From Amoebophrya sp. A120 (taxonomy: Eukaryota; Protista; Dinoflagellata), in NCBI GenBank assembly GCA_905178155.1, contig CAJINV010000003.1:4933863-4997862 (forward strand): 64,000 nt of DNA, given 5' to 3'. The notes below the pieces were generated by a model. The model made no database searches. It saw only the letters and a list, made by a program, of their open reading frames with translations, and was not told where the DNA came from. The position numbers and the translations under genes are program-made. Of the stretch, positions 17,641 through 62,550 are shown piece by piece. The first letter of the stretch is position 1. Each line of letters starts with the position of its first letter.

Positions 17641-19745
17641 CTACAACCACAGCGAGACGAAATACATGACCCAGAGCACCTTGAACTGCACGCCGTAAAG
17701 ATCATGCGCATCGATCTTTGCAAGGTAGGCCAAGTAGAATCGGTACAGCGCGTAGAAGAGAAAGTTCCACAGGGGAGGCGTCGTCGCAACCGCATGTGCT
17801 CGCTCCGGCGTGTATCTCGGCCCGGCGAACGCCAACGAAAGAGATGAAGAAGGTGCTGGGCCAGTCGTTGCCGCAGCGGACGACAAACCGCTTTTACCCG
17901 GAACAAGCTGTAATGAACAACAACTATCGACCAGTCGATACAGCCCTGGTTCTGCCGTGTCCCACCCGTAGAGCTCGGTCGTTCTCGAAAAAATTTCCCG
18001 CGCAAAAGTGACGGGCGAGAATAGAAACGTGGCGAAGTAGGCACCGGTGGGGACAGCTTCTGCATCGTCTCCTGTGTGAAGCTTTATTCTCGACACTGGA
18101 GGATAGTGGTCTAACGCGAATTCTTTCGCTGGCTGCACCACATTGACGTGGTACCACACCAGGTAGAGGTATCCTGAGTAAAAACGTACCCACACCAGAG
18201 TCAGGATGGGGATTTTGCAACACAAACCTAGGAGTTTTGTGAGTCACGCATGACAAGTTGCGCTCTGCAGTGTAGTGCAGGTTAGCAAGTGCAGCCGCAT
18301 CACAAATCCAGCTGCTCATCCTGTTCACAGCATCACAAATTCCAAAACACGATTGGAAATGGCTCTCATGGGGAGGCGCATTACAAGTCTTCCTGTCTTT
18401 GCAAATCTGCATCACAACTCTGGTGTGGGTACGTTTTTACTCAGGATAAGAGGGCGCAGGGAAGATGGTGTGCCAGCAAGTCGAAGAATCTGAAGGGATT
18501 TCCCCGGAGTCGGATGCGGTTGTCCACGAGCAAACACCTTGGGTGGATATCAAATGCAAATATCAATATGTCTGGGTCTGGAAGAATGCAAGTTTGTCAT
18601 GCTTGTCTGGCATGGCTCTATAAATCTGTGATGCAGGAGCAGGAAAAGGGCCTTTTGCCTGTCATGCAAAAACGCAGTTTGTCATGCGAAAAACGAAACA
18701 CACAGCAGCGCAAAAACTTGTCATGCTGGGCTCCATATTGCACTGCGCCCAATAATCGGAAATTTGCATCACAAGTTTCCAGACCCAGACATATTTGCAA
18801 TGCATAGTGGACCCACACAAACAAAAACGCAATCAGCGCCACGTGAATGATGGTCGCCCGGATCGCCCGTGCGTAGTCGTCTAGAAAGGACCCCGGCAAG
18901 AAAACGTGGACCGCAAGCGCCAGCAGTGTCCAAGACGTGAAATACCGGCAGTTGACACTCAAGGCGAAATGATAGAAAAGGAGCGAGTAGGAACACAATT
19001 GCTCCTCTTCTCCTGCTGGAAAGGCACTTGATGTACTGCTGACACCACTACACGAGGCCGCTTTGTTGTTTGCACCAGCAGGCATGCAGTTCTTCAACGC
19101 CGCCGCCGACAGGACAATACTCGTCCGCTTCCTTGGCGTTGTAAGCCCACTGGGAGTGCTGTCGAGAACGACGCACCCATCGACGAAAGGCGACAGGGTA
19201 CCACTTCTACTCTCCGCCTTGCAAGAACCCTTGCCGTGATGTTCCTTCCCGGGACTGCTTTGCTCGGAATCCGTTTCCGTGCTTGGCGTTCGCGACACTG
19301 ATATGGATGTGTCAGAGTTGAAATCGACAAAGTTGAAATAATTTGTCATGCATAAAATGGACGCCAGTTGGAACCCAGTTAGTAAGTGGCGCATGACAAA
19401 TTTCGGTGGTCCCTAAATCCAGTTTGTCATGCTGTTTAGGCAAAGAAGAGTGATTTTCTCATGCTACTTTAGCAGCTCGAGCTGTAGCCCCCAACAGGCT
19501 TACAATCGGCCTCACTTGCCTGCTCTGCAACGCACGTGCCTCTGGTCATGCATTTTATGCATTACAAATTATTTCAACTTTGACGATTTCAAACCTGACG
19601 CTTCCATAACTGAAATAGACGGCGTATCGTCGCTGTCGCCTGTCCAGTTCGGCACCAATTGGGATTTTCGCCGGGTAAGGGACACATGCCGGCGAAGCGC
19701 TGCGAGATCAAGAAAGACCTCGGCGCCAACTTCCTCCGTAGTCAT
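17641..19745 (-). CDS. Multi-pass membrane protein interrupted by three TIR elements; weak FAR-17a/AIG1-like motifs
   Basis: Removing elements 19302-19608, 18548-18806 and 18170-18448, each with one TSD copy, gives one ORF: MTTEEVGAEV...DDTPSIS|VSRTPS...FLFVWVH|PRCLLVDN...HHLPCAL|YLVWYHV...VSLWL*. It contains YFTSW and HHLP motifs. Confidence 0.8.
18170..18448. mobile_element. Introner/MITE-like element, TIR family B (279 bp)
   Basis: Perfect 32-bp TIR TATCCTGAGTAAAAACGTACCCACACCAGAGT. Perfect TSD AGAGG at 18165-18169 and 18449-18453. Six GCA(T/A)NACA motifs inside. Removal restores the frame. Confidence 0.95.
18548..18806. mobile_element. Introner/MITE-like element, TIR family A (259 bp)
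   Basis: Left end TATCAAATGCAAATAT(CAATAT)GTCTGGGTCTGGAA; right end TTCCAGACCCAGACATATTTGCAATGCATA. Perfect TSD GTGGA at 18543-18547 and 18807-18811. Removal restores the frame. Confidence 0.95.
19302..19608. mobile_element. Introner/MITE-like element, TIR family C (307 bp)
   Basis: About 58-bp imperfect TIR TATGGATGTGTCAGAGTTGAAATCGACAAAGTTGAAATAATTTGTCATGCATAAAATG. Perfect TSD ACTGA at 19297-19301 and 19609-19613. Removal restores the frame. Confidence 0.93.
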
Positions 19746-20325
19746 TTTTGAGATAGATCTTCGAGCGCGGATAATGCTGAATTCAGGCGAAGTAAGTAAT
19801 TTAAAGAATCATACAACTGCACAAAAAACTCCCTACCGGACTGTGATCGCATTGTATAGTGTACTTGTTTTCATGGGCTACGAGTACGGGTAATCTCACG
19901 CCTCCGGGGCGGGGACCTGCTGTTGCAGCGATGTAGTGTGCACCAAACTTTTTTTCAAAACGACACGACTACTTGGCATCGCTGTTATATCGACCCGAGA
20001 GAGTAGCTCGCTGATAGGCTTCCATGTAATTAGTAGACTCGATAGAAATTGTGAATTTTAATTGTTCTCACAAGCCTCGCTCACAGTCACTCTCTCCCAT
20101 AGCAACTTGGGGCCAAAAAAAAAAACCGATTCGACTGAATTTTCAAAGTACTTACTTCTGTATCTCTATCTGCAAAAGGACAGAGAACGGCATTTGCCGA
20201 CACGCCCGCAACGTAACATGCAACGCTTGCGCAAGAATAATACTGGTGAGTTTTCTGTTGGCTCATCATTTTTTCTGCATCAAAGCTTTGTAGACATCGT
20301 TACACTGTTCTTAACTTTTAGTTCA

Positions 20326-21562: not shown

Positions 21563-22334
21563 CTTGTGCAACCAGAGCGACTCTCCGTCAGTACTTCTAA
21601 AAAAAAGCACTTATAAACGAGCACTCTACTTGAGCTAAAGCTTGAATGCGATTCACTGTTCAGCAAGCTAAATTTCAGAGGTTGAATTGCATATACACTT
21701 TTTTCATTGACTGCTGTCTCTTGATGTAGTAGGCGAATAAATATTTTTAAACCATTACAGTTACAGTTTCGCGCGTGCGCCTCCTTCTCGTGCACCAGAC
21801 AAGCTTCCTCTATTGTTATTCGACTTCACACAGCAACAAGTCAACCACGCCACTCGCTGCACACGTGGTGCTACATTTTGCACAACGTCAATCTCAATTT
21901 TTTCGATCACCTACATTTTCTCTGTAACTGGACGTCCATTGATTGTCGAGAAGCGGCACCAAACGCAACTACATGGAACACATTTTTTTACGACCAGACA
22001 TATATTCGAAACGTCAATTGTCCACAAAGTTCACCCGATATTCTTATCGTTTTCGGTTGGAATGGCGAATGAAAGGACCGGACTCAATAAACGTCGATGG
22101 TTTTTACTTCCGTGCTGTAGTACTTTTTTCTATGCACAGTATGTGGGTCGTCTTAACGTCAATATGCTCATGAATGAATATTACATCTTCATCCTCTGTC
22201 GAAACATGTGTATGTGATTGTGCGTTTTAGTTCTTTTCGTGCCCATTCTACACGTACAAAGTAGCTAAGTAAGTGCGTATCTATCATGAAGAAAAAAAGG
22301 TGGGATCGTGTCGCATACGGGTCTCGTCTTGCTC

Positions 22335-23384
22335 CTATTTCCTATTTTTCTCTAACTTTTCCCGCGTACGCCGTTCGTTCCCTTCGACGAGCATTAAGGG
22401 TGTATCATCGCCTTCTTCCTTACAGATCGCCCGCATCTTGGCACACACCTGCAGAAGCTCTTTCCACTGCTTCGCTTTGCGCAGCTTTGGCAACTCGTCG
22501 TCTAGCCAGTCGTACTGCCTTCGCCGGGCGTCACTTTCCGCCAGCTCCGCGGGGCCCAAACTGCAAACTGGGCACTTGCAGACGAAACCGTAGTCGCGCT
22601 GGAACACCTGCTGCCGGAAGCCGTGGTCGTGCCAGAACCCGATGTAGGAAAATGTGAGCTCTTCTCCTTTCTCCACGTTCCTGGCAGCAAAAACCGTGAC
22701 CTTTCCAGCCTGAACACGTCGAGTGCAATTCGGACTGCAGGAGTGGTTCAGCCTCGCAGTCAGCAAAAACAGCATGTCGCTGGACACACTTCCTCTAGTG
22801 CTTCCGCCAGCCACGTCCGCCATGCGTGTGGTCTCCTCGGGCTGAAAAGCGTTTGTGGCGAAAGTTTGGACGAGCTGGTGGGGGGATAATTCTGCAAAAC
22901 GACTGTTGTTGCTCTTGTTCGCCAGCGACCGCACTCTGCTCTTATCGCTCTCGGCTAAGGCGGAGAACTGGCCCCAGAGCATGGAGATCTCCTCTGGATG
23001 GAAAGAGTGGCTTGTGGCAAATTGTACCGGTCTGCAGTGGGAGAGCACCGGCGTTTCGACCCACAGCAGCTCTCCCTTCTGCACCGCCTCCAAGGCAATA
23101 ACGCCCTTCCCGCGTCCATCTACTTCCATCACGCGGAAGGCATTTGCGCGCTCACTTGTAACACGAGTGGTTTGCAGCTCCCCGTCCGCGGTGTCTTCGA
23201 ACTGCAGGTTCGTCGCCTTCACGCTTAAACAGGCCTCGTCGCTCGCGAGGCGGATTTGGAAACGATTTTTGTCGGGAAGGTACTTCAAAACTTTGGCTCG
23301 TGCCCCATTCAACTCTGGTCGGCTCTGAAGTCCCGCGATTTTGGCCTGGAGACCGGCCTGCGACGCCGCGCACAGTTGTGTCAT
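22335..23384 (-). CDS. SET-domain lysine methyltransferase (SMYD/Set5-like)
   Basis: Motifs GRGKGVIA, ARLNHSCSPNC and KGEELTFSY, and post-SET YGFVCKCPVC. Single ORF. Confidence 0.92.
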   Translation of the reverse strand: MTQLCAASQAGLQAKIAGLQSRPELNGARAKVLKYLPDKNRFQIRLASDEACLSVKATNLQFEDTADGELQTTRVTSERANAFRVMEVDGRGKGVIALEAVQKGELLWVETPVLSHCRPVQFATSHSFHPEEISMLWGQFSALAESDKSRVRSLANKSNNSRFAELSPHQLVQTFATNAFQPEETTRMADVAGGSTRGSVSSDMLFLLTARLNHSCSPNCTRRVQAGKVTVFAARNVEKGEELTFSYIGFWHDHGFRQQVFQRDYGFVCKCPVCSLGPAELAESDARRRQYDWLDDELPKLRKAKQWKELLQVCAKMRAICKEEGDDTPLMLVEGNERRTREKLEKNRK

Positions 23385-23626
23385 GCTCAAAGGTCGTGGG
23401 ATTGTCTAGATCGATGACATAGAGTTCCGATTCAAGGCTGCTCGAGGAGCAGTCTACAATGAAATTATTTGGATTTGCGTTCTTCAAAATAAAGCACATA
23501 AGCCCAGACCGGCAGTTGGTGGAGATATTACCGCTAAAACCTCAGATGCCCCTGTGTCACTGAAAAAAAAAAACCCAAATCGTGGGAGAATGTCTTAGAT
23601 TCACTCTGGGCGCTCATTGCGTGACC

Positions 23627-23670
23627 CGAAGGAACACGGACCCGAGCTCGAAGGAACACGGTCCCGAACT
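23627..23670. repeat. 22-bp tandem duplication (2 copies) in intergenic DNA
   Basis: CGAAGGAACACGGACCCGAGCT followed by CGAAGGAACACGGTCCCGAACT. Confidence 0.8.
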
Positions 23671-43520: not shown

Positions 43521-46500
43521 TCAGCCAATCCTTCTCGTATTTTCGAACTGGATCAGAGGACACTCTGCAATCGCGCCACATACTTCGACTCTGCCCGACT
43601 CTGACACATTATCCTTGAAGAGAACGCGGTCTCCTTTTTCGAACACCGTCCCTGCCAGGCCGTACTCGCAACCGCGAAAGTAGGAATTGAGACACCTGAT
43701 ATCCAGTCGGTGAGGAGCAGCCGCGCTGGTCAAAAATCCCCCTTTACGGCTCCCTTGTAAAATGTGGACGGCACGCCTGACATTCTCGAACGCCGTGCAG
43801 TTCGCCTCGTCCACGACTGCGCCGGATTGATAAGTCTCTGAGTCGATGTGTATCCAGCTACCGCTTAGAATTTGGTCGACTTCAATCGCCGCAGATAAGT
43901 TGTGAAAATTGCAACCCAAAACGCACACGGAGCCACTGACTGACTGAATTCCAATGGTACTGCCAGTACTCGGAGGCACGAGGCCGCGATCGCTATAAAA
44001 TTTGCAGCGAAGAAAGACCGCTGGCGCTATCGAGGGCCCACAGGCAACGCCTGCGACCGAGGGGCGACAAAGGTTGAAGCGGCAGTCTGTGAAATAAGGC
44101 CCCGGCTGTTCGAAACCCACCTCCGTGCAGCATGCTTTGGCTCTTGGTGCAAATAGCGCGTGAGTCGTGTTTTTGCTCCCAAGATTGTCGCTCAGTAAAG
44201 CCTTGAGGCCAGCCTGCGCCGCTTCAATAGTTGTGATTGCGTTCTCGCCGTTCTCCGCGCCCCACGATGTACCAGCTGGCGCAATCGCTACGGCCTTGAC
44301 TTTTCGCGCATCGTGTGCGTCCCGGCGGGACATAGGAGGTAGCCATCGCTTCTCTACAATCCTGCTCCCACAAACAATGCCCGCACGTTCAGCCCAAAGC
44401 GGATTCGCCTCGTCGCTAGGTAATTTACGGACGCACAGGGACGCATTCGGGACCAGCTTCAGGGCGAGAAGCTCTTCCGCTGTGGGGGCGATAGCATCAG
44501 CAGCACCTGTCTTGGGCCCACCGGCTTTGTACAATACGCCTACCCGTCCAGATCGTGCCTGCACACCCTCAACAACCATCATTGCGGTTGCAGTCTGGCC
44601 TGCCATCGTGCTGCCGCTCCATTTTGTTACTGCTTCGCTAGGCGGTCGGAACAGGATTCTGCGGAATTGGCATTGCCGATTGTAGACGCGGAGTGGCTAT
44701 CCACGGAAAACAAGTTTGTGTCTAAGTGGTTGCAAAGCTTGCACCTGTATCTGCATACCGCTCGGGTGGCGTCAACAGGCCTCATGTCTTCAAGATCCGC
44801 ATGCAGAAAGGCGCAACGCGTTGGCTATGCGACGAAGCCACTTCTAGCGCGCGCTAATTATGAAACACATTCAAACTTATGACTCATTGACCTATTGGAA
44901 GCCCTTACGTGCAAAGCAACCCTCCAGACCCAGACCTTGTTGCAAGGCATAGACAGCCAGGGCCTACCTCCAAAACCGCCGCGCCGTGCAGTTGGTCCTC
45001 ACGCTGGAAGCACTGCTTCGGATTGCGCGCCTGCATTCGCCTACGATAGCGCCGCGCCTCTTTTCCCAAGGGCCGGCCTTCGATCAGCAGGGAGCCCCGG
45101 ATCTCCAGCGGCTTCAAAATTGCTTTCCCCGTCTTGACAGTTTGGTCTTCAAGCAGCACGATTCGGAAGTACCGGTCGTCCGCCGGCGCCTGTGCAATCG
45201 CCTCTGCAAGCGTTTCGCAGTGATCGGGCACCAGAATGCAGTACGGATCGTTGAAGGGACTTCGCATAGCATCCAGGGAAAACATGTCTGGGTCTGGGAC
45301 ATTACAACTTGCGGCCCTGGCGCTGCCTTTGGATTCTACAGAGCTATGCATTGCGTGGGCAGGCACGGGAGTCCAGTTTTTGCCACGACGAGAGGCCATT
45401 TCTCATGCGGCATATATAAGGAGCCATCAGGAAGCCCTCACGAAGTCTGTAAAAATTTTGCGGCACCCATTAAGAACATCTTCATGGGTCATGCAAAATT
45501 GGGATGACTATGCGCGAAATCTGCCTGACGCAAACATATTTTCAGTCAGTACATCGCGACCGGATGCGACAACGCCCACGACGGCAGGGCGTCAGAATCC
45601 TGCGCCGAGAGGCTGCTTCCGCGGTGTGTTTCGTGGTACAGCTCGAGCGCCTCGCGACTCAGCCGGCTCGAGATTGGGTCGAGAAAGAGACGGAAAATGC
45701 AAAACGCGATCCGCTGGTATGCCCCGGCCACCCCCAGCTCCAGGATTCCCGTTTTTGTGTCCAGCTCCAGGCGCACGGTGGTCGCCTTGCCGCGTAGGCG
45801 GGACACCTGGCGGCGGCTGCGTGCCTGCTCGGACATCGCTTCACATGCCTCCCCGTCTGCGGGCCTTCCCGTTGGCGGCCGCGTGAGTTTCTCCAAGTGC
45901 AGAACGTACTCGCAGCGGTAATGTCGGTCGCCGATAGGTCTCCATCTCGGAGGCTGCAAAAGGTCTGCAAGACATTCACACTCATCGTCACGCGCGAGCA
46001 TCAAGGCCACGAGCGGGCGTCCGGGCGGTTGAAAGCGAGCCGCGTCCGTGTCGGTCGACCCCGCTCCGTTCAAAAAAAGATCGATAAAACCCCGCCGCAT
46101 TTCCTTGCCCATGCCGGGCGGGCGGAACTTCCCGCGCAGTCGGTGCTTTTCCGGAAGGTCTCGCAAGAGCCTCTGTGCTATGCTGGCAGAGAGCTCGCTC
46201 GTCAGAAACTCCGCGCTGCTGCAGTGGATGACGCGAAACCGCGGATGAGCCTTGAGTGTCCTGTGTGGCAAGCGGTCGGCATAGGTTCCAGCCGCGTCGA
46301 AACAGGGGCGGCCCGCTTGCTGCTTGTATCGTGTTGGTAGCTGGAAAAGGCTCGAAGTTTCTTGCGCTTCTGTGTACCAGCAGCGCCCGCTTTCTGCCCA
46401 TCGATTCAAGTCGCGATACATGTCGAACGCTTCGCCCTCCTGCTTCAACAACTCGGGCAGAAAAACGCCTCGAACGAATTCCCCTGGAGGTGTTGGCTTT

Positions 46501-48427
46501 GCGGCGACCCCTGATCGCTTACTGCGCAGAGCCTGTTCCTCCTTCTTTAGCAGCTCCTGCAATAGGGCCTCTTCGGTTGAGATCAGACGCGAAACGAGAG
46601 CAGCTCCGGAATCTACTTGCGAAAATCCGTCCACTTCTTCTCCCTCTTCCTCTGTGGCAGGAGCGGCTACTGCTTTCCTAGCCTTCCCCTTCTGGTACGC
46701 CGACAGCTTGGGCTTGACGCTCTCCAGAACGCGCAGAGGGGTCATGCCGCGAACCCACTCCAGCTTCGGCCAGTTGCGCCGGTCGTAAAAATCATCGCTA
46801 TTCACGTTCACATCCCTTGTTCGATCGAACTCTACGTCCACAACCGCGAAAGGCGTCACCGGGCGGCCTTCGTGCTCGACCTCGATCATGTTTCTGTGCC
46901 GCGGCTGCATTTTATCCTTGTCGAGCTTTCGCCTGTCCCTCTCTTCCTTTTGCTTGTCGTTGTCGTGCTTCTGTGCCTGGTTTTTCGAGAAGAGGGAATA
47001 CGTGGCCGGGTCGCGGCGGTGCCGATCGCGATACTCCTCGAGCGAGACCGTCTGCCCTTGGTTTGGTTCGTGGGGGTCGGAAAACTCCGGGCACCACATC
47101 CGCTCCCGCTTGTCGTTGAAGCAGGCGCGCAGCGATGGCGATGGCTTCGTAAGCAGGTCGTCGAACACATCCTCCCAGAACTCCGCCTCGAATTCGACGA
47201 CGCAGCGCGGTGCAGGTGCTTGCTTGGAGCTGCTGCTACTTAACGAACGAAGAACCTGGACCAGCTGCTGTCTGTCAACGCCCGAGTCTGTGCTCCGGTA
47301 CAACCATCGCGCGTCCTTGTTTGCCAATCGCACCAACCGGAGCCGCCACCCCTTTTCGACCCTGCAGCCTGCTTCATGCTCATGCTTCGCCGGCTTCTTC
47401 GCTCCAGCGCTGCGCGTCCACGGGTCGACCTCAAGTGCGCCGGATCCGGCGACCTGTCCTGTCTCGGTGCGGTTGTCCACTGTTTCTCTGACGTGCCCCG
47501 TCTCCAGCTCGATGTAGTTCTGCAGAAGTGTCAGCGTTTCGAGGTGAGACAGCTCGAAAGCCCGCCGCTGAGAGTTCACCTTGTCGGAGCAGTAGAAGTC
47601 TTTCATCCTTGGCAGGTTTGCCTTAAAAGCGGTCAGAGTCTCCTTGCGAATGACGCGGACAGAGTCTTGATCTACAAGCAGGGGGCGCTCGACCATCTCC
47701 GCGCTAGAGGGTTTTTCCGAATCACCTAGCGCCGTGCCTTTCTCTTGTCGCGCCTGTTCTTCGCCGCTGGCGTCGGAAGTCGCGGCGGCTACATCGGCGG
47801 AAGTTTCTTTGCCTGGCGGAGCTCCTAATGCCTTCCAGTCTAGGTGAAGAGAGATTTTTACTTTCTCCTTGTTTCTGGACCATCCGGTTGACGAGAAAAT
47901 GTAGCAGCGGAGCCCTTATCAAATGCAAACATGTCTGGGTCAGGGTAAGAGCTGCACGCGACTTCGCTTGTCGTAATAAATGAGTATCTATTGCGTAACT
48001 ACACCGCGCCGCTTTGCACGGCGTAAACGCATCACAAATTTTTCGGGTGGGGTGGCATTGCGAGGTTTGTTTCTGCAGTATTTTCTTTGCATGCACACAG
48101 GCTTCCACCACAACCCAAAATAAAGTGGCAACAGCCACACGCATTCATGCGTCTTTCAAATTTCGCATCACAAATCAAGACCCAGACATGTTTGCAATGC
48201 ATAACCCCAAGACCTTCGGGAAGAACTTCCGCATGACCATCGCGCGAAGCTCCAAAAACCCGGGAAAGAGCACAGAACTTGGACTGAGCTGCTCTAACGT
48301 CTGTGCCGCAGTTGCGCCGAGCTCCCCACCTGCCCCAGCAGCTGCGTCCTTGCCTCGGACCGGGGCTGTGACGTGAGTGCAGTTTTTTTCTTCTCATGCC
48401 GACTATTATCTCTTCTGCACGCGCCAT
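43521..48427 (-). CDS. Large protein with a probable C-terminal right-handed beta-helix (pectin-lyase-like) region, interrupted by three degenerate TIR elements
   Basis: Removing each element plus 5 nt joins ...FFPKVLG|(L/F)RCYIF..., ...HPVAM|RSPFNDPY... and ...EVGPG(C)|LRVYNRQ.... ILVPDHCETLAEAIAQAP...RIVLLE...KPLEIRG resembles a beta-helix N-cap. The start is uncertain. Confidence 0.7.
44698..44951. mobile_element. Highly degenerate family A element (254 bp)
   Basis: Right end TCCAGACCCAGACCTTGTTGCAAGGCATA; eroded left end TATCCACGGAAAACAAGTTTGTGTCT. The TSD is no longer recognisable (GTGGC/GACAG), but removal of element plus 5 nt restores the frame. Confidence 0.7.
45270..45551. mobile_element. 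Degenerate family A element (282 bp)
   Basis: Left end CATCCAGGGAAAACATGTCTGGGTCTGGGA; right end TGCCTGACGCAAACATATTTTCAGTCAGTA. TSD CATAG/CATCG (4/5). Removal restores the frame. Confidence 0.82.
47917..48203. mobile_element. Family A element with eroded TSD (287 bp)
   Basis: Left end TATCAAATGCAAACATGTCTGGGTC; right end GACCCAGACATGTTTGCAATGCATA. TSD GCCCT/ACCCC (3/5). Removal restores the frame. Confidence 0.9.
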
Positions 48428-48533
48428 GGATGCCTGATAAACTGCGCTCCATCTTATACGAATAAAACTTGAGAGGCTCTGCGCCTAAGTGCGTGCATTC
48501 GAAAGACTAAGCACATTAAGAAAATCTACATAG

Positions 48534-49262
48534 TTACGATGTACCATTCAGCTCTGGAATGTACGCCCATCCGCAGCGATCCTTCCGGGGAATTCGTGGA
48601 TCTGCGTGCCTGATGTCGCGGATTCGTGCTTTCTTGTCGACCTCGATGCCGAACTCCGCGAACCATGTCTCTGCGTCTTCCAATTTCAGAGAGTCATAGG
48701 CCAGGTCAATGTCTTCCATGAAGCAAAATACCGGAGTGAGGAACGGCGTGAGCGGCAACGAAATTCCCCGTGCCCAGAGCCACACGCTGATGAGCCGAAA
48801 CGTTTCCCGGTCAACATCCGAACGGAAGACCTGCTTGCCTGTGCGGGTAAAGGGGCACCCCTGGGGCCCACAGAAGTACGACACTCCTCCCTTGGTCTTG
48901 TCGCGCTTGAAGTCTTGCTCCCTCTCCACGTCTTTGGTTCTCAACCAGACAAAGAGCTCGTAGAAAATCCATTTCTCCAGATCACTGAGGCCGTCGCGCT
49001 TGCCGTACCGCCACAGGGTGTCACCCTTCCAGTCCTTGACACGGTTACCCTTCTCGTCCTCCCCGTCGAAGTTTGCCAGAGCGGCATCGATGCGGCGATT
49101 TTGCTCGTGGTTATATAGCGACTTTGCGAGCGCCAGCGCAGCGGGTTCAGATGGCGTTCGTAATTCGTCGGGCTGCTTCGCCTTTTCCGAAGTCTGCACC
49201 AGAGCAAACCCATGGCTATCACGCATGGCACTGGGCGTGGTAGTGCCTTCTGCGCTCGTCAT
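48534..49262 (-). CDS. Hypothetical protein, 242 aa
   Basis: ATG-started ORF with globular-protein composition. No recognised domain. Confidence 0.7.
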   Translation of the reverse strand: MTSAEGTTTPSAMRDSHGFALVQTSEKAKQPDELRTPSEPAALALAKSLYNHEQNRRIDAALANFDGEDEKGNRVKDWKGDTLWRYGKRDGLSDLEKWIFYELFVWLRTKDVEREQDFKRDKTKGGVSYFCGPQGCPFTRTGKQVFRSDVDRETFRLISVWLWARGISLPLTPFLTPVFCFMEDIDLAYDSLKLEDAETWFAEFGIEVDKKARIRDIRHADPRIPRKDRCGWAYIPELNGTS

Positions 49263-51987: not shown

Positions 51988-52856
51988 CGGCCGTCCATTC
52001 GCGTAGTAGGGTCTGCGTCTTCTCTTCCTACTTTACTTATGTCAGTCAATAGGAAAGAACGATGTTCGGACAAATGATTGTCGCCCCTAGAAGTGGTATT
52101 GCGCGACAGACTTTCTGGTTGCCATAAAGTCGCATCAGTTCGGAAAAATGAAGCGTAAAATGAGGAAATCGCTGAGGGTAAGTACCGCTGTGAACTGGAG
52201 TTCTAGCTAATTGATTCCGAGGCATTACCGCTAATTTCTTTGTATCGATAATCAGAACAAAGAAAAAATTTGATCCCAGTCCGGCGCAGCGCTTGGATCG
52301 CTTTTGTGTGCACCACTCGAACAAGAACTCAATCTGATGAGACTGGTCAATTTTGGTGCGCTATGCCACGCGCAACGGTATGAAGTTCATTGATTGCGAT
52401 GATTCGCTTGAAAGCTAGATTCTACAGTGTAGGTAGGTCGAGCGCTTGAAGCTCTGTCAGAGTCAGTGGCTCTTGAACAAGCGCAAACTACATCAGCGTG
52501 TTACTACTGTGCAACTAGTATTTCTGGCAAGCGTCCTGGCATGGCATGACCACGGACTGCAATGCTGCTCTAAGCTCTGAAATTCGAAATCAGTGAGAAA
52601 CTTCTTGTAAGTTTGTGTGTGAGAAGATAGAATGAAACGTGAGACTGAGGATAAAAAGACGAAGACGAAACTTGACTACAAGTAATTTTACGTGTAACAG
52701 CGCGAGCCCGGACTACTATACAAGCGACTGTTTGGAGAAGAAGAAGACCACGCGGGAAGCTACAAAAACAGCCCTGATCTCATCAGATATAATTGGAACG
52801 ACAAAGTACAACCCGTTTTCGTTTTCTGTCGCTGTTCGCCTTCGAGTATTACTACC

Positions 52857-55800
52857 TCAGGCATTGAGCAGCCCCCACTTGCGTCGGTAGCTGTGAAACG
52901 CAGCCAGCACATCCCGCAGGTGCGGGACAACATCCTGCCCGCGTCGGTCCTCCCCGGTTAACAGTGGTGCGCGCTGCTTTGTGCCGCCGGGCGCGTGCTG
53001 CATGGTGACCGCCTGTATCAACTGTAAAAGTGTCTGGGTCTGGAAGAATTCATGTTTGTCATGCTTGTCTGGCATGACTCTGAAATCTGTCATGCACGTT
53101 ACCCAAGAGCTCCGTTTTTCTATGATGCAGAAGCGCAGTTTGTCATGCAGAATAGGCAACACCTAGGAGCTCAGAAACTTGTCATGCTGAGCCAGCATCT
53201 GTAGCCTCATCATGAGACGCCACCCAGCATCACAAGTTTCCAGACCCAGACATTTTTACTTTTGATAGCCTGCAGGACCTGCATGGCATTCTGTGCCTTT
53301 TCCATCAACAGCCGGCGGTTGCGATCGATGACCAGCAGACTGACGGTATGCAAGAAAAAAACTGTGTGAGTGTAACTCTGTGATGCAGAAAGTGGAAAAC
53401 TATTACACTTGTCATGCTGGATCTGCGTCATAGGCTACTTTCATACGTGTTTTCACGTACTAGCTGCGCATGACAGGTTTTGCCTGTAATGCAAAACGGA
53501 TTTGTGATTCTGTTTTTCCTACAAAGTTACACTTACACAGTTTTTTTCCTGGATAGACGGTTTCGTGCACCAAATCGAGCTGCAGGAACAGCACCCCGGT
53601 GTTCTGGAACAAATCATAGGTCACCTTGCGCGCCTTGCAGAAGCTGAAGATCTGCGAGTGCGTGCAGCGATCCAAGCCCGGCACCTCGCACGTGAGCACG
53701 ACCAGCGCCACTCGCTCATTCGCGGCGTGGTCGGTTTTGTGGTAGCCTGGGGCGTGCGGCGCCAGGTACAGGCGTCCGTCGTCGCCCAGCTGACACTGCC
53801 CAATGAACTGCAGCGCGGCAAAAGCGGAAGCAGCGTCCGTGATCCTGACGTCCACATCCACAACCCAGAACCGGTACGGAAAACACACGTTGCGCATCCT
53901 GTTGGTTGACCAACGATATTTCTAGTAAAGCTACAGCTCGTTTAGGTGGAGATGAGCACTTGAAAACGAAAGACAACAAAACAAGACGGACATCACGACC
54001 AAAGGATCAAGTCCAAGCCAGGCTGTTATTTCTGTATATTACCCTGCAACGGTGCACGGAAGCACGACATTCTCCCGAAACTCATCTTCGGTTTTTTCTT
54101 GCAACAGCTTGCGCGCCTGCACGGCGGCCTCTGGATCGAAGGGGGTTCCCGGGGGTTCCGGCGATTTGAATGGCGCCAGAAACTCCCCCGTTTGACCGGG
54201 GTCAAGTGGCCTTCGCTCTTCGGGCTCGAAGTCCTTGTTCTCGAAGCATACCAGATCCACCGAGGCGTGACCAAGCATGTCCTTCGCGGCTAAAACACGA
54301 CCTGGTGACAACGACCATGTTAATGTTGTGAACAGCTTCCGTTTATCACCGGCGAAATCAAAGTAGCTCGCGCATCAAAGGGTCACGCGATTGAAAGATG
54401 AAAAACAAGAGGTTTCTTGGAGTCTGTCGCTTAGCAAGTAGGTACCTGTGCTCTGTGCGAAGGCCTCACAGACGGGGAGCGGCACCTGATCGGGACTTTG
54501 CAGTGGCAGGAGGCACGCGACTGGCTCGAAGTTCGAGCTGAAAATGTATTCCGAGGTCGCGAGCAGCTGGGTGCGCTTTTCCGGTAACACCTGAAAATGC
54601 ACGGTGGGAAAGCTGAGCACCTCGCCGGGAACTGCCTGTATTATGCCGCCCCGCTTGCAGAATTCTGGGATGAAATCAGCCAGCTCGCTGGGGTACATGC
54701 GACCACCGCCGCAAAGCAGAGCTTTCTTGGGAAACGCACGCGCAACCACGTCGCGGGCCATTCGGATTAGAAGATCCCGTAACTCGGTACTAACTGGCCC
54801 GGCGCTGCTCACACGATACAAGCCCGCCACACGGTCAACGGTCACGTCACTCGTTCTTTTACCTGGTGAGATAGATCGATAGTACAAATGATATCGATTC
54901 CGACTGACAGAAAAATCAATGTTCCGCGAAATAAAACTTCGTCCAATCAACACCTTCTGCGGTTGCCGAGTGCAGGAAGCTTTCCATGGCCCGATGTTGC
55001 AGTTCGGCAATGCTCTTGCGCACGTTTGTGTCCACATGGAAGATGGCGGATCCCTTGCCGCGGAACTCGTCGTCAATCTTAAAAATCCATTTTGGCACGG
55101 TCGGGTGCTCGTAAAGCTGGACGCCAAACTGATGGTACAGCTCTTCCTCGTCGTAGAGGTCTACGCTGGTTGGCGGGTGCGGTACCTGCGCCAGAGTCAC
55201 CAGGCGCTGCATGGCGCTCTTTGTTCCGAGATAGTCCACGTTTTTCGGGTTTGCACCATACAGGGGAACGTTGAGCTGTGCGGACAACTGCAACTCGGCG
55301 AACGTGACGCCGTGTCCCGGGATGAGAACGCTGCGCTCCTCCCGTCCGCGGATGAGAACTTTTTTTTTTTGTTCGTCGGAATCCTCTTTTTCTCATGATC
55401 ATATAGATACTCACAAATTGCAAGAAATAATAATTCTTCTACGTAAAACTAGAGCCAAATCGATGATCAGCGACATTTTTAACAGGCCAACAGTTGAGTC
55501 GTTACCGCGCAATCGGTTCATCGCTCTGCGGGAGAGCAGCAAGCAGTGCGCGAGCGTCATGTGGGCGGGGATCGCGGGGCTGTCGAGCTTTTCCGGCACC
55601 AAAATTTGCAGACGGCCTTGCGGATTCTGGATGCCGCGGTACTCCATGACCTTCGCCATGTACTCCAACAGGTCCTCGTGCAGCGGCTTGGAGCACACCA
55701 ACACCACGTCCGGTGGCGGCTCGTCATTTTTTGGGCCGCAGTACCCCAACCGAAACAGCCGCGAGATTTGTGCGTTCTGCACGCTGGGAAACGAGTGAAT

Positions 55801-58800
55801 ACACGCGCGCCGAAACTCCGGCACCGAGAGGGACAACAGGTGGATCTCGAGCCGTCGGACCGTGCGGGCGGCCTGCGCAGAACTGCTGAACTTCGACCGC
55901 AGCCGCGTGAACCGCTTTACCTCCTCCTCGCGCACCAAATTAATCGCCTTCTTGGTTTCCACGAGGTTCTGGCAGCTCACCCAGGCAACCTGGATCGTTT
56001 TCGCGGCCCGGTGGAACTTCAGAAGCAGCGCCATTTTCAGTTTGCACTGAAACATCTGCCACCCGCCCCAGATGCACTCCGCCGCGAGCTCGCGTCGCAG
56101 AGGCCCCCGAAACCGCAAACCCGGTATTTCGTGCTCGAGGAACGGCAGCTCCTCCAGGTTCTTCACGCACGTGCCCACAATTTGCGCCTCCGAGAAGTTG
56201 CGGCGGTCGCGGTTCCCGAGGGCGAAAATCACGTCGATCATCTTACTAACGTCGATGATCGCCAGGGGCGCTTTCTTCAACTTTCGGCACAGCAGCGTAA
56301 ACACGTCCAGCAGCTGCGGCCAGTTGTTGCGCTGATTCTCCTTCAGGTCGGCGAGGTTCTGGAAAATGTTGCCGTATCGGATGCACACGTATCCCTCGAT
56401 CTCCTCCCGGGAGGGCACGTGGTGCAGTCCGTAGCGCGCCAGAATTTCGCGGCGCGCGAGGTCTTCCGCCTCGTGCTGCAAAGGATCGTCCTGTTCCTGC
56501 CGCAGCAGGTCTCGCCTACTACTACTGGAGGACGTGCCGTGCTTGCGGTGTCGGCCTTTCCTCGCCTCCCCGGCCACTCCAAACGACGTGTTGGGTCTTG
56601 GCGCGTCGGCGTCCAGCGGAACCAGTGCCGTCGAAGATGAACTGGGCGCGTTCTGTCCTTCGGGCGGTCGCCCATGCGGGATGCCGTGGGGGTCGGCAGC
56701 GAGATCGGCGCCTCCTTGACCACTGCGTGAGGCATGCACCGAAAGATAGGATTGCAGAACCGACGGAGCGGACGCTCCATCTGAACCGGCTGTTGGTCCT
56801 GCGTGGGACGTGCTGGTCCTTTCTCCAGGATGATCTGCGGCCGCACTTCCGAGGACGCCCCCGCCCTGTTCGTTCTCGTAATACAAGATCCTTTGCTTGG
56901 GTTGCTCACCGGTGGGTTTCGGACTCTTGTTGTCGAGCGTCTGGTCTTCGGGGATGTTCTCGAGCGCTCGCGGCAGCTGCGCCGCACTGGTCGACGCGTG
57001 TATCTGTAGGCGGGAAAACGCGGCGGGGTGCTCCACGGGATTGAAGTTGCCGAGCACCTGGGTGCGGAAGTAGCTCACCGAGTATTCGGCCGACGGCGCG
57101 TCGTCGTCCTCAGCGAAGGAGTGGCTCTTCTCGTCCTCCACGTTCTTCTTGGAGGACCACAAGACCCGCCTTACCCAGGGGTCGACGGCTAACGTCTCGC
57201 GCGCGATGATGGTGTTCGAGGACCGTTCGATTGTGTACGCCTCCTTCAACACCAGCAAGTTGTTGCTCACCAGCGGAAACACCAGCGGCGGCGGCTGCGG
57301 CTGGTGGATCTCGTCCATCTCCAGGCTGCGCTCCTCCTCCTTGGCGGACGATGCCGTCAGTCGCTGGAGCAGGTCCGCACTCAGCAGCTCCTCCCACACC
57401 GCCACGTCGGCCGGGTCCGTGGTCGTGCCGCCGCTGGTCTCTACGTAGTAGTAGATTTCCTTGGCAATCCGGTTGGCCTGCTTGTCGATGCTGAAGATCT
57501 CGCGCTGGAGCAGGCGGTCCTTCCTCTTGTCCACGGTGAAAAGCTCCTTCGACAACAGGTCCTGCGAGTTGCGATCGATGTGGAACACCTCCTTCACCAG
57601 ACGGTCCTCGTATCAAATGCAAATATGTCTGGGTCTGGGAGAATGCTAAATTTCTCATGCATATTTTCCATGCCCCATGAGGTCTGGAATGCAGGACCTA
57701 GCATGACAGGTTTTGCGAAGTCTCTGCCATGCCTATCCTGCATGACAAACTGCCTCTAAACTTGTTCAAAAGTGGACAGCTTTTGGTAATCACGCAACAC
57801 AAGTTTTTGTACGATCCAGACTTAGCATGACAAGTTCGCGTCCTTCCAGACCCAGACATATTTGCAATGCATACCTCGGTCTCCGACGCAATCACCTCCT
57901 TCTTCACTGCGTCGTGGCTCATGTGACTGCTGCTCGACGTACTTGCGGCAGGAGCTGCCCGCTGTTGTCCCGTGGACGACGAGCCGGAAAACATGCCCTC
58001 CTCCCCGGTTATGAAGGTGAAGTCTCCCGGGTCGTGGTCCATCCCACCAGACGAGGCTGCACCAGCTCCGGGGCCACCTGATGTGTGTACAGTTTCATGT
58101 ATCCATCTGCAAAAGGCCGTCCGAACAACATTCTCGTGATCTACTTATCGCGCAGTTTTTAGCATGAACGAAAGACCGACAGCACGTATGCAAAAGAACA
58201 AAGCATGTGTAGCTCCTCGCAAAGAATTCTTAAAACCTCCTTTCCCTTGCAACCGCGCCATTGCCTCTATACTTTCGTCTCTGAAAAGCCGCGTCTCATC
58301 GGGGCTGGGGCTCCGCAAGACAATAGCGTGGTTGAGGCTCGCCTTTTCCTCCTCGGACATAATCGGTGGCGCAGGACTTGGGGCACTACGAGGTATTCTG
58401 GGCAACAAGTCCGTGAGCGGCACAAGCACATCACACTCGCCTGATTGATTTTTCACTCGCTTTTGTCGACGCGATACCTAACAGGCGGCAGCGAAGTGCG
58501 TGACTTTTATTCCCGGGCGAAAAAGATGCAGATAATTATAAATGTCTCTAGCGAGCTACAAGTACTTTTTACCATGACTGTTGATGTAGCTGCGCTGTCC
58601 TGCGATTGCACTCCTGCTATTCCCCCGCGATGGCGGCTTGACGGGGCAGGGTACCACTGGCGTGTGGTCCAGTTTGACCATGGCCGTGGGTAGGTTCACC
58701 GCAGTTGCTCCTTTCTGCGCCAGCCGGTCGTGCGGAGCGTACATGCGCGATCGCTTTTGCTTCACCACTTCCTGCAAACCGGGCGTGAGATCCACCGACG

Positions 58801-59850
58801 CGGGCAAGAATCCGCGATTTCGCAACGAATAAAGCCCGCATTCTAAATCTCGCTCCGTGAGTTCTGGGGGCTCTGCGCCGGGGTCCTTTCGATTGATTCG
58901 CGGAAGGATCCTGATGAATCAGAATGTGACACGCCTAGCTATCCAAAATAACGTATAATTTTTGGTCGAACAAGATGCACACAGAATTTGCTCCACATCT
59001 TCGCCCCAATCCACTGTAGAAGGAGAAGAAACCCGAAGCCGCACACTACTAAAAGTATGGGAATGGGCTGCATCTATTACAGATGAGAGCATGATGAAAA
59101 TCAAAATGAAGGACTGAATAAATTAATATCTCCAAAATCTTGGATCTTCAAAGAAACACCTCTTGGACGCGGCAGTCTTCCCGCGGTGAACGGATGACCG
59201 CGACCGGGGTCGGGCGGTGGAGGACGAGGATCCGCCGGCCACCTCTTGTGGCGTACTGAGCAGCGGAGGCACGACGCCTGTCCTTGTCGTTCGCGATGGT
59301 CGCCGGCCAAAGGTCGAGGACTTTCGCTTCGCCTCCTCCTGCTGCTCCAGTTGAGCTTGATAGGCCAGGATCTGTTGTGGTACAGCACATGATCTCCTCG
59401 AATCATAAACTCAGATTGAAACGACGGATTGGATATAGTTGTTGCAAGTTCGTTTCAAGTGAGAGCGCAGCAGCTTGGGTTCTTGCTCCTTTTCCTACGT
59501 TTATGTACTTCGTGAAAAATTCTATCAGAGGGTTGCGAGCCATGCGCTTTGATTTGAAAGCAATTGCATCGAACCTGCATGATGTATATACTTTTTCCCA
59601 CGCGGCGCACGCCGCGTGGATTGGTTCTTATGTACTTCGTGAAAGCGAGCGGACAAATCTATAATTGCTTTTCAAGTAGCGTAAGTCGTACCTCGGCTGC
59701 TTTGCTGCGCAAGTTCTTTTCTGCGGACTCGAGCCGCTCCCGTAGAACCCCCGTCTGGCTTCCATCTCCGGCCGAGTTCTCAAGTTCGGCTTTCAGACCA
59801 CGGAGATCCGCATGGAGGTCGTACAATATGCGACCGACCGACACCACCAT
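52857..59850 (-). CDS. IQCH: IQ-motif-containing protein H-like, multi-exon, with three TIR elements and several GT-AG introns
   Basis: Motifs AAKTIQVAW, EIHLLSLS, QNAQISRL, LGTKSAMQRL, WIFKIDDEFRGKGSA and GHASVDLVCF. Element removal joins ASETE|DRLVKE, VHETV|SLLVID and QVLQA|VTMQH. The 5' exons (58145-59850) are less certain. Confidence 0.8.
53016..53267. mobile_element. Family A element (252 bp)
   Basis: TIR TATCAACTGTAAAAGTGTCTGGGTCTGGAA / TTCCAGACCCAGACATTTTTACTTTTGATA. Perfect TSD GCCTG at 53011-53015 and 53268-53272. Confidence 0.95.
53347..53555. mobile_element. TIR family D element (209 bp)
   Basis: 31-bp TIR TATGCAAGAAAAAAACTGTGTGAGTGTAACT with 3 mismatches. Perfect TSD GACGG at 53342-53346 and 53556-53560. 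Confidence 0.94.
57611..57873. mobile_element. Family A element (263 bp)
   Basis: TIR TATCAAATGCAAATATGTCTGGGTCTGG / CCAGACCCAGACATATTTGCAATGCATA. Perfect TSD CCTCG at 57606-57610 and 57874-57878. Confidence 0.95.
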
Positions 59851-60399
59851 TGGGAGGAGATCGCCACTCCCACGAGGTGGCTACTCTGCTACATGGTCCT
59901 ACCCCCAGGAGCCGCCCCCTTCAGCGGTTCATTCCCCATCTACCCTTACGCTCTCACAGGTTGCGCTCCGAAAACGACGTAAAGACGAGGTCACGAAAAA
60001 ATTATCGTACCGAAAAATGATACGACGCCACAAAAAAAGTGGTATAGAAAGAACTGCATGTTTGATAAAGCAGACGAAGAGACTCTCAGCAACCAAGCCC
60101 AAAAATAAAAAAGGAAACCCTGCAGCCTTTGAAAAGTTGCTCTCGTGTCCGCGCTCAGGGTCTCTCGCAACCCAAGGTCAAGACAGCACACAGGTCTAAC
60201 ATACGAGTCGGTCGTGTAGAAAAGCCCTTGCAATCCGGTTCTGTCGCCGTCAATCCAAAGAGAGACTACGACTTTCGGTATGTCGCGCTCGCGTCTCAAT
60301 TGAAACTGAAAATAGGAATACATCTTTGCACATACTAAGCGATGGAGATTTGTACATATGAACATGTTGCAAAAAGGAAACAGCATGGCGCTGTTTTTC

Positions 60400-62550
60400 T
60401 CATGATGTCTGTGCCAGAAAATCTACAAGGGCGGCTTCAATGGCATCATCCACATTGTAATTCTTGTCTTTGAAAATGCGCCACAGCTCTGCTTCATTCG
60501 CAAGCGTTACCACTTTCTGAGGGTTTTCCGGAAGGCAGTCCTGCAGCTGCGTATGGAAGTCCTGGAAAGCCCCAAGATGCGGATTCTCTGCTTCAACATT
60601 CTGCTGCTGCGCTACGCCTCCTCCAGTTGCGCCGTTTGAAAGCGAAATACCGCCTCCGGCACTCAGTAGCTTGCGGACCTGGCTGAGGTTCAGCTGAGCC
60701 CCGCTGCCGGATTGTCCTCCGCCTGGTCCTGGTGCGGGCACGACTAAATTGTAGTGCTCCCCCCCTATGTAGGCCAGAAGTACGCAGGTCCCCGCAGATT
60801 TTTTTCTTGAACTCGCCAACGACTGCTCCCGCTTCGTTCTCAGCTCGGCGGCCCTACTAGCTGCGGCGGCACGCTTTTTTGCTGCTTGATGCAGCGTTTC
60901 CTTCTTCTCAGTTGCGAGAGGTCGCGCATCGCCAACTTTTACCGCTTCTTTGGTTTGTCCTTCTTCAGTTGTAACCCCCCGTATTTGTGATGTGGCATCT
61001 TCTTCGCCACTTGCTGCGGACTCCACGTTGCCCCCGAGCTCTTCGAAAGAAACGATGTGCAAATCGGAATCTTCTTGTTCGGAACGAACAGCAGCTTCGT
61101 CGTTTTCAACAAAAACCTCCTTTGGCGTACTGCCACCTGGCGTCTGCCCTTCGTGTGGCGTCTCGACGTGGTGAGTTGGGCACTCGATCTCGTAGAACGT
61201 GAACGAATATTCATCAGAGATGCTGCCCGCGGTGCTGCCTCCAGGAGCATTTTTCCGCGGGGTTGCGGCCGTCTCCCCCGCCGTACTGCGCTGAAAAATG
61301 AGTACGTCGACCGCAAAGTACCGACACAGAGCCAGAATCTCGAGCTGTCCGGCCCAAACGCCCTCCTCGCGCATGTTCGCCACGTAGTGCGCGTAGCTGC
61401 CGTCCGTCTATCGAAAGGAAAAATCCCCCCTCCCCATATCGAAAACGAAATTTGTGATGCTGTATTTGAGGTCACAAAACGACTTGTCATGCTAGAAGGC
61501 CAAGAGCCGCAGTCGTGGCCTCGTTTGCAGGCAATTTGTCATGCTGTTTCCCGCTCTCAGCTGCCTCCTATCATGCTGAAGATGCAAGGCTTGACCACGG
61601 CACCCAGCACTACAGTCCGTATCTTTTCCCGTGTAGCATGACAGAGCTGATTTGTGACAACAAATCTGCATCACAGATTTCCGTTTTGATATGGGGAGGG
61701 GGAATTTTCCTTTTGATACCGTCTCTTCGTCGAGGAACCACCGATACTCTTCCTCATGGGCGAGGAGCGTGTCGCAGCAGAAATTCCTGCAATCGCCGTG
61801 GAACACTGCGGCATTTCTGAAAACGTGCTGCGCGAAGGAGCGGAACAGGCAGTTGCCGTCTTATCAAATGTAAAAATGTCTCGGTCTGGAAGAATGCGCG
61901 ATTTGTCATGCAGCTTTTCCATGACCCATGAGGTCTGGAATGCAGGACCTAGCATGACAGATTCTCTGAGGTCTCTATCATGCCTTTCCTGCATGAAAAA
62001 CTCCATCTCAACTTGGTCAAAAGTGGACACCTTTTGGTACTCACGCAACACAGATTTTTGCATCATTCAGATTTAGCATGACAAGTTGGATTCTTCCAGA
62101 AGCAGACATTTTTACACTTGATACGTCTTCCGCCTGTCCGATCATCTGCAGGCCGCGGTCGCCCAGGTAGGCTGTATCAAATGTAAAAATGTCTGGGTCT
62201 GGAAGATTCTGACACTTGTGATGCACGTTTTGCATGAGCCATGATGTCTGTGATGCATACCCTAGGAATACAGATTTCTTGAGGGCTTCTTGATGCCTAT
62301 TCCGCATGACAAATGCCTTCTCAGCGTAGCAAAAATTGCATTCCCGTTGGTAATCATGCAATACAGATTTTTTTGGAATCCAAATGCAGCATCACAAGTT
62401 GCATTCTTCCAGACCCAGACATTTTTACATTTGATAGGCTGACAAAGCGCGCAACTCCGCCTCAGACGCGGTCTCGCCGCGCTTCCGGCGCTGTCGATTT
62501 TCCTTGCGTTGTTTACGTGATCGCCCATTCTGCTGCCTGCCTCCACCCAT
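60400..62550 (-). CDS. OTU-family deubiquitinase (OTUD3-like) with a possible C-terminal UBA/CUE-like domain, interrupted by three TIR elements
   Basis: Reconstructed MGGGRQQ...ALSA|YLGDRGLQMIGQAED|GNCLFRSFAQHV...FLDEET|DGSYAHYVANMREEGVWAGQLEILAL...LAYIGGEHYNLV, which contains the Cys-box, the W-G-x-x-E helix and the His-box. Confidence 0.92.
61409..61718. mobile_element. TIR family E element (310 bp)
   Basis: About 52-bp imperfect TIR TATCGAAAGGAAAAATCCCCCCTCCCCATATCGAAAACGAAATTTGTGATGC. Perfect TSD CCGTC at 61404-61408 and 61719-61723. Confidence 0.95.
61862..62123. mobile_element. Family A element (262 bp)
   Basis: TIR TATCAAATGTAAAAATGTCTCGGTCTGGAAGAAT / ATTCTTCCAGAAGCAGACATTTTTACACTTGATA. 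Perfect TSD CGTCT at 61857-61861 and 62124-62128. The interior is collinear with 57611-57873. Confidence 0.95.
62175..62436. mobile_element. Family A element (262 bp)
   Basis: Perfect 32-bp TIR TATCAAATGTAAAAATGTCTGGGTCTGGAAGA. Perfect TSD GGCTG at 62170-62174 and 62437-62441. Confidence 0.96.

Follow-up and report, generated by a model that had tools for sequence, protein, structure and literature searches.

The window, a 64,000-nt stretch of the Amoebophrya A120 genome, carries protein-coding genes interrupted by short elements that run from TAT to ATA (Table 1). The earlier note had placed all host genes on the minus strand, and this is borne out by Pfam matches in 8 of 48 minus-strand ORFs versus none of 11 plus-strand ORFs; held-out 4-kb tiles (n = 16) were called minus in 15 cases and plus in none, with 1 uncalled, and canonical introns seen in transcript contigs have CT..AC borders when read on the plus strand. 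The IQCH-like gene encodes a 1622-aa ORF from the first Met, its exon at 54919-55392 matches ATP-grasp_IQCH (PF24923, E 1.4e-16), and the 5443-nt model plus 10 T of an untemplated poly(A) tail equals the 5453-nt transcript contig. The OTU-like gene matches PF02338 slightly below the cut-off. Window models also reproduce the annotated A120 proteins P0003 (511/511) and P0001 (414/414), the latter upon removal of the 18548 element plus 5 nt together with two neighbouring elements.

Table 1. Host genes and inserted elements in the window (class, orientation of a family A element; TSD, target-site duplication).
Feature	Position	Strand or class	TSD	Remarks
IQCH-like host gene	52389..59956	-		12 exons, 8 GT-AG introns and 3 elements
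OTU-like host gene	60319..62643	-		3 elements; upstream end inferred from the length of the transcript contig
Host gene with three decayed elements	43521..49262	-		1574-codon frame
Family A	18548..18806	class B (as 53016)	GTGGA	no register with a GT/GC start or an AG end
Family A, in IQCH-like gene	53016..53267	class B	GCCTG	one register permits GC-AG
Family A, in IQCH-like gene	57611..57873	class A	CCTCG	one register permits GT-AG
Family A, in OTU-like gene	61862..62123	class A	CGTCT	no GT/GC-AG register
Family A, in OTU-like gene	62175..62436	class A	GGCTG	no GT/GC-AG register
Decayed family A	45270..45551	class B	CATAG/CATCG	ends CAT...GTA; frame needs +5 (mod 3)
Decayed, family A-like ends	44698..44951		1/5 matching	interior unassignable; GT-AG at +4 breaks frame
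Decayed, family A-like ends	47917..48203		3/5 matching	interior unassignable; GT-AG at +4 breaks frame
Other-family TAT...ATA element	53347..53555		GACGG	no GT/GC-AG register
Other-family TAT...ATA element	61409..61718		CCGTC	no GT/GC-AG register
Other-family TAT...ATA element	18170..18448		AGAGG
Other-family TAT...ATA element	19302..19608		ACTGA

Five elements of ~260 nt with terminal inverted repeats (TIRs) form family A; their boundaries in the earlier note are all exact, and each copy lies between perfect 5-nt direct repeats. The TIR starts with TAT followed by a run of A, as in the published A120 introner elements, and the ends are mirror images over ~50 nt, including a TGTSATGC motif. 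In the folds predicted for either direction, 23-34 of the 35 leading nucleotides are paired with the opposite end. Among 320 TIR pairs picked blind to the TSD, the duplication is exactly 5 nt in 242, 4 nt in 3 and 6 nt in none, and the 242 target sites show no base preference. With TIRs, a fixed TSD, high copy number, a repeated subterminal motif and no coding capacity, the elements resemble the MITEs of TIR DNA transposons and are likely non-autonomous DNA transposons themselves. An autonomous partner was not found; five longer copies (457-1031 nt) hold no frame above 151 codons. Searches against Rfam and viral contigs and a homolog search returned no match.

As the earlier note had claimed, the family A interiors fall into two opposite classes, those of 18548 and 53016 being the reverse complement of those of 57611, 61862 and 62175; for instance, of the 24 positions in 53135-53158, 23 agree with 57730-57753 read as its reverse complement. 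Alignment of the five interiors on both strands, with 50 nt trimmed off each end, showed cross-class pairs to be antiparallel and within-class pairs parallel: for the six cross-class pairs, scores are 70-104 in reverse complement versus 44-56 on the same strand, within-class pairs score 153-248, and dinucleotide shuffles 31-37 +/- 7-8. Since each interior scores only 31-61 against its own reverse complement, the interior is not palindromic and orientation is defined. Over their full length, 53016 and 62175 align antiparallel by BLASTN (69% identity, E 4e-15), and the decayed copy 45270-45551 faces as 53016, giving 3:3 in the window. Both orientations do occur within the one IQCH-like gene, as 53016 and 57611 share a single 5.45-kb contig.

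Family A is repeated across the genome, and we surveyed 152 copies outside the window in 149 loci located by a sequence pattern. The loci total 406 kb, come with a single exception from one assembly, and are biased to copies with an intact TIR core. After setting aside 12 copies whose TSD has more than one mismatch and 48 with no host-strand call, the sense versus antisense count that the earlier note had proposed genome-wide was run on the remaining 92, for which a codon model of the host strand predicts a 1:1 orientation (45:47, p 0.92). On 72 held-out tiles the element-level strand caller left 47 uncalled and was correct in 25 of the 25 that it called; two callers agree in 67 of 67 cases, with one model common to both. 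Subfamilies each fixed in one direction were ruled out (Fisher p 0.12; in 54 of 97 cases the nearest neighbour faces the other way), pairs at least 90% identical face the same way in 16 cases and opposite ways in 17, and even 95%-identical siblings face both ways.

In 52900-62700, transcript contigs skip each element together with exactly five further bases. In four runs of one sample (X1-X4, taken as RNA; the evidence consists of cDNA contigs), joints 53010-53268 and 57605-57874 skip 257 (252+5) and 268 (263+5) nt, those at 61862 and 62175 each skip 267 (262+5), and those at the other-family elements 53347..53555 and 61409..61718 skip 214 (209+5) and 315 (310+5). Thus all six elements in 52900-62700, including all four family A copies, are skipped, in 4 of 4 runs and in the same contigs as 8 GT-AG introns. 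The earlier note would have been contradicted by one orientation being retained in mRNA; both classes are skipped, class B being represented in RNA by 53016 alone, which allows GC-AG. The joint at 18548..18806 rests on annotation and orthology, as transcript contigs do not cover it, and raw RNA runs X8 and X9 placed only 78 and 2 partial reads.

Reverse-transcriptase template switching across the hairpin, between the direct repeats, could mimic such skipping while the real mRNA retains the elements: this anatomy is a classic, orientation-blind source of false non-canonical junctions (PMC4176328), and the RNA evidence here is entirely cDNA. Retaining 53016 would merely shorten the longest frame from 1632 to 1600 codons, and with 62175 retained a 469-codon open stretch remains. 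Coding constraint nevertheless makes the artefact very unlikely. Most copies carry stops in all three frames (class A, 42/48; class B, 45/49), yet the flanks are open for 120 nt on each side after +5 removal in 31 of 36 class A and 31 of 37 class B insertions, as against 15-23 after +3 or +4 removal. The 18548 junction, at aa 209, is collinear with the A25 ortholog P0002. Moreover, the 1574-codon frame of 43521..49262 survives in only one of 27 combinations of removal lengths, +5,+5,+5, although one TSD there has decayed to 1 of 5 matching bases; P0003 likewise requires +5 at 47917..48203, with register k=0 excluded. Excision from DNA in the transcribing nuclei has a precedent in ciliate IESs, to whose removal the exact undoing of a TA-ended insertion in either orientation bears a resemblance. 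Amoebophrya A120 is not known to have a germline/soma split, and contigs of the DNA-like run X5 pass from flank into element among the matches listed, which makes this route less likely still.

An ordinary spliceosome that removes only those copies whose TSD provides GT/GC-AG, as for the two-way introners of Aureococcus and Polarella, would fit both IQCH copies; the IQCH example of the earlier note is by itself weak, because 53016 is readable as GC-AG and 57611 as GT-AG. However, 4 of the 6 RNA-joined elements (53347, 61409, 61862 and 62175) have no such register, and across insertions one is possible in 4/41 of class A, 5/41 of class B and 15/157 overall, near the 7.5% expected by chance (p 0.29), which renders this the least probable of the explanations considered. 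Selection for canonical borders was not significant in a set of 74 either (10/74, p 0.08). AG is not preferred at the would-be acceptor (15/157 versus a 7.1% background), and G shows a weak excess at the would-be donor (38% versus 30%, p 0.056). As a group, the insertions do not conform to the GT/GC donor and AG acceptor of canonical U2 introns.

Both facings are about equally common and skipping takes one 5-base repeat along, so it is likely the mirror-image ends, rather than splice letters, that are recognised. The earlier note had proposed that the interior carries no essential directional signal and that TIRs and TSD suffice. Its first half stands insofar as the facing of the interior makes no difference to whether an element is removed: copies of either class are skipped, they number 45:47, and element+5 restores the frame in each. 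That TIRs and TSD suffice does not follow, as a directional signal within the mirrored ~50-nt ends would look the same in either orientation; with both ends alike, each signal would be available in both directions, and removal could leave the asymmetric interior unread. TGTSATGC was ruled out as a 3'-specific branch signal, as 3' bias is absent: the terminal motif lies in the 5' end only in 38 and in the 3' end only in 31 of 191 (p 0.47), the role of an end in the RNA (5' or 3') makes no difference to its conservation, and 10 canonical introns lack the motif in their final 60 nt. Matching TSD copies may not be required for removal, because the 1574-codon frame requires +5 (mod 3) even at its three copies with decayed TSDs, where 1, 4 and 3 of the 5 bases match; constant +5 removal at such sites points to a ruler, not repeat matching.

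The explanation that we favour, at somewhat better than even confidence, is that these are A120 introners, inserted in both directions and skipped with one TSD copy, whose hairpin is cut at fixed distances, probably by a relaxed spliceosome. The mirror-image ends are predicted to fold into a terminal hairpin in either direction, and the cell itself would remove the elements at the RNA level. The 5' cut would fall one base before TAT, the invariant T taking the place of the U in GU, and the 3' cut four bases beyond ATA, with the chemistry presumably performed by the spliceosome. In A120 this is reported to comprise 83 of 89 spliceosomal proteins and U2/U4/U5/U6, but no U1 (PMC7789003, section 10). 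Exact TSDs leave the register undefined; the one-base register puts 54 of 109 insertions in phase 0 (p 0.002), and k=4 gives phase 0 too. The one-base register is also favoured by Table S4 of PMC7789003, whose choice of register may differ, where T is second in all 9 predominant A120 borders, by the GTA with which 7 of 10 canonical introns here begin, and by P0003, which excludes k=0.

Such NT-start borders and the phase bias resemble a spliceosome and weigh against a non-spliceosomal RNA cut-and-join, in which the terminal hairpin or TGTSATGC is recognised and a staggered cut made 5 nt apart, as proposed for euglenids. This alternative, which we rate as possible but rather unlikely, would account for dispensable border dinucleotides, for ends lacking 5'/3' asymmetry and for the two decayed copies in which a GT-AG at +4 would break the frame; euglenid TIR/TSD introns leave as circles, with lariats absent (PMC11282704, section 6), and a spliceosome disregarding both donor G and acceptor AG is hard to picture. 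More doubtful still is a sequence- and orientation-blind, non-spliceosomal RNA "undo" of tens of thousands of transposon insertions, which would gauge its stagger of 5 nt from where the TAT...ATA hairpin begins, ignore GT-AG even one base away and tolerate unmatched target copies.

Neither the elements nor two-way introners as such are new to the literature. Farhat et al. 2021 (PMC7789003) report 29,850 introner copies in 1954 families from the same organism (P0001 is 99% identical), with inverted repeats that open with TAT and a stretch of A, direct repeats of 3-5 nt, and ~240-nt non-canonical introns absent from transcripts. That paper describes inverted repeats of 8-20 nt and variable direct repeats, whereas we find a strict 5-nt TSD and ~50-nt mirrored ends; the parts covered contain no analysis of element orientation, which is predicted here to be 1:1, and we find a constant element+5 removal. 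An integrase-like TIR element is also described in A120 (PMC12130899). Two-way insertion has been published for spliceosomal introners: those of Aureococcus anophagefferens and of Polarella glacialis classes 2, 3, 6, 7, 8 and 10 are likewise TIR/TSD DNA-transposon introns from which mRNA is restored (bioRxiv 2020.10.14.339549; Huff 2016 via PMC10228655). Their G[T/C/A] donors and AG acceptors are either part of the element or recruited, and a one-orientation bias is reported for simple two-way classes there, whereas A120 borders are free and orientation shows no bias (45:47). Euglenid nonconventional introns share a TIR hairpin joining the ends, TSD-like repeats, non-canonical borders and a proposed MITE origin (PMC11282704, section 6). 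In euglenids, moreover, the junctions follow a pyrimidine|purine consensus and the excised RNA is circular. Neither the 1:1 orientation nor the fixed +5 geometry was found in the literature searched; Figures S19-S25 of PMC7789003 and the datasets of PMC12130899 may bear on orientation or register. Taken together, even orientation and free borders leave only the mirrored ends, ~50 nt each, to hold the signal. PMC7789003 leaves open how Amoebophrya non-canonical introns are removed, and opposite-facing 95%-alike siblings, together with loci whose TSDs are mismatched, among them 44698, 45270, 47917 and 42 copies with a single mismatch, provide ready test pairs for deciding between a relaxed spliceosome and a new activity that joins RNA.

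The five family A elements that the earlier note had placed exactly in the window each run from TAT to ATA between exact 5-nt direct repeats (target-site duplications, TSDs), and the 24-mer quoted for 53016 and 57611 indeed matches at 23/24 (elements are named by window start). Alignment of the five interiors on both strands, with the terminal inverted repeats (TIRs) trimmed, revealed two opposite orientations, the interiors of 18548 and 53016 being reverse complements of those of 57611, 61862 and 62175 (scores of 70-104, vs 44-56 for same-strand alignment and 31-37 after shuffling). A palindromic interior is ruled out: self reverse-complement scores are 31-61, so the orientation of the interiors is defined. 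The hosts lie on the minus strand, as had been proposed, with Pfam matches in 8/48 minus ORFs and 0/11 plus ORFs, a held-out codon model assigning 15/16 tiles to minus and 0 to plus, and intron polarity in agreement.

Features in the window and long elements found outside it
Feature	Position	Remark
Family A, class B	18548	left end with about 6 additional bases vs own right end (18557-18564)
Family A, class B	53016	in IQCH-like gene
Family A, class B, decayed copy	45270-45551	third member of the 53016 class
Family A, class A	57611	in IQCH-like gene
Family A, class A	61862
Family A, class A	62175
Other families, like anatomy, intact	18170, 19302, 53347, 61409
Like anatomy, decayed	44698, 47917
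Tight element clusters	61409-62436, 18170-18806	intervening exons about 44-140 nt
IQCH-like gene	52389..59956	minus strand
Ion-transport, SET and RING domain genes	14203-15832, 22338-23405, 37985-39268	minus strand
Segment in canonical intron 59372-59691	59565-59635	probably another repeat
Long elements with ends of family A type, 481-1031 nt	L046:571-1051, L047:3862-4492, L063:2990-4020, L074:2990-3961	possibly nested or composite; no frame >151 codons

To follow removal we used contigs of four runs (X1-X4) of one sample, presumed to be RNA, which behave as cDNA in having an untemplated 10-T end at 52389 and in skipping 8 GT-AG introns. All four runs skip element length plus 5 nt (+5) at 6/6 elements of 52900-62700 (257, 214, 268, 315, 267 and 267 nt). 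Both orientation classes are skipped, and a single contig lacks both 53016 and the opposite-class 57611, bearing out the claim that one IQCH gene holds both orientations; the model of this gene (5443+10) equals the contig (5453) and has an ORF of 1622 aa. At 18548, where annotation and orthology take the place of transcript contigs, the adjoining exon matches a protein of Amoebophrya sp. A120 at 99% and also an A25 ortholog, and subtracting element+5 yields the annotated protein P0001 at 414/414, with a gapless junction at residue 209 against that ortholog (11/21 identical). The elements are present in place in the DNA-like run X5, and excision at the DNA level is very unlikely. In the probable repeat at 59565-59635, X5 depth is raised and X1-X3 show loose ends.

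A TIR-core scan gave 149 further loci (L001-L149), a single assembly supplying every locus except one, and their copies reach 96% identity to window elements; L145 is the sole pattern match from another metagenome contig. With host strand predicted by the codon model, sense and antisense family A copies outside the window, for which a genome-wide count had been suggested, show no bias in this sample, at 23:23 on a strict strand call and 45:47 on a wider one (p 0.92; 92/152 copies). Orientation does not track subfamily, as pairs at >=90% identity split 16:17; siblings of 53016 at 95% face both ways (L089 the same, L055 and L015 opposite), and outside family A the closest relative of an element faces the other way in 53/84. 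Stops occupy all frames in 42/48 and 45/49 copies of the two family A classes, and 120-nt open flanks are restored best at +5 in both (31/36 and 31/37, vs 15-23 for +3/+4). Among 320 unique TIR pairs chosen regardless of flanks, the TSD is an exact 5 nt in 242, has one mismatch in 42, and measures 4 nt in 3 and 6 nt in 0; target sites show no base preference.

One gene is interrupted by three copies with decayed TSDs, and among 27 length combinations only +5,+5,+5 gives its 1574-codon frame, a test that distinguishes removal lengths only modulo 3. Two of the three copies can also be read as GT-AG at +4, and either reading breaks the frame. Template switching (PMC4176328) would make the skips artefacts, which is compatible with element anatomy but leaves unexplained both decayed TSDs and intact frames around stop-laden copies, and we consider it improbable. 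TSD mismatch per site is about half that of the TIR core (4.2% vs 9.3%, the latter biased by the search), as neutral decay would give. The annotated A120 protein P0003 requires +5 at 47917 and rules out register k=0. Three hints, short of proof, point to a cut one base before TAT: T is second in all nine commonest A120 borders (Table S4 of PMC7789003), GTA starts 7/10 canonical introns, and this cut places 54/109 insertions in phase 0 (p 0.002). Phase after the 5' TSD copy is 27:54:28 (p 0.002; window plus L001-L149) despite the lack of target preference, the skew lying mostly in G-ending TSDs (8:27:4 vs 19:27:24 otherwise; post hoc). Single TSD mismatches at host-strand positions 1-5 number 8, 8, 4, 3 and 3 (L001-L149), which may hint at register or wobble.

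An exact TSD allows six or more equivalent border registers. These include GC-AG at 53016 and GT-AG at 57611, so the one-gene example is compatible with the normal spliceosome too. No GT/GC-AG register exists in the remaining seven intact window elements, four of them RNA-joined; such borders are possible in 4/41 vs 5/41 copies of the two family A classes and in 15/157 insertions overall vs 7.5% expected, and ordinary GT-AG splicing is a most unlikely explanation. The 10 canonical introns of 53899-63934 end A/C-rich (ACAG, ATCAG, ACCAG, one A-run), with no polypyrimidine tract evident at their 3' ends.

The mirrored terminal region spans about 50 nt, and folding predicts a terminal stem on both strands. 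Within it, TGTSATGC points inward 30-45 nt from the ends, is present in 261/284 elements (10.3 per kb inside vs 1.0 outside) and recurs from family to family, internal repeats being asymmetric; it often recurs about 31 nt further inward across TAT...ATA families. We infer that these are transposase sites, and their sharing by all TAT...ATA families suggests one transposase for many families. Ends that serve as the RNA 3' end show no higher conservation, either of the motif or of any of the first 32 positions. The interior need not be read, in keeping with the earlier note; its conclusion that TIRs and TSD suffice goes beyond the data, since end signals are offered twice. Our preferred reading is that a relaxed spliceosome, guided by the hairpin and acting at a fixed offset, would take the elements out of pre-mRNA; a euglenid-type cut-and-join reaction that does not use the spliceosome (PMC11282704) is less likely.

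The window elements fit the published A120 introner elements, with TAT-starting inverted repeats, 3-5 nt direct repeats, non-canonical borders and 29,850 copies (Farhat et al. 2021, PMC7789003); A120 families are also discussed in PMC12130899. Two-way introners have been published with canonical-type borders, unlike these, in Polarella (orientation bias in simple classes; bioRxiv 2020.10.14.339549) and Aureococcus (PMC10228655, bioRxiv 2020.10.14.339549), and the method of PMC9860276 permits opposite-orientation matches. The open-access text searched holds no statement on A120 element orientation, and the uses of "orientation" found in PMC7789003 concern gene order. The elements are real and already known, and the orientation and geometry constraint is apparently unreported. 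In A120, U1 snRNA was not found and the removal mechanism was left open (PMC7789003); the constraint bears usefully on how A120 introners are removed.
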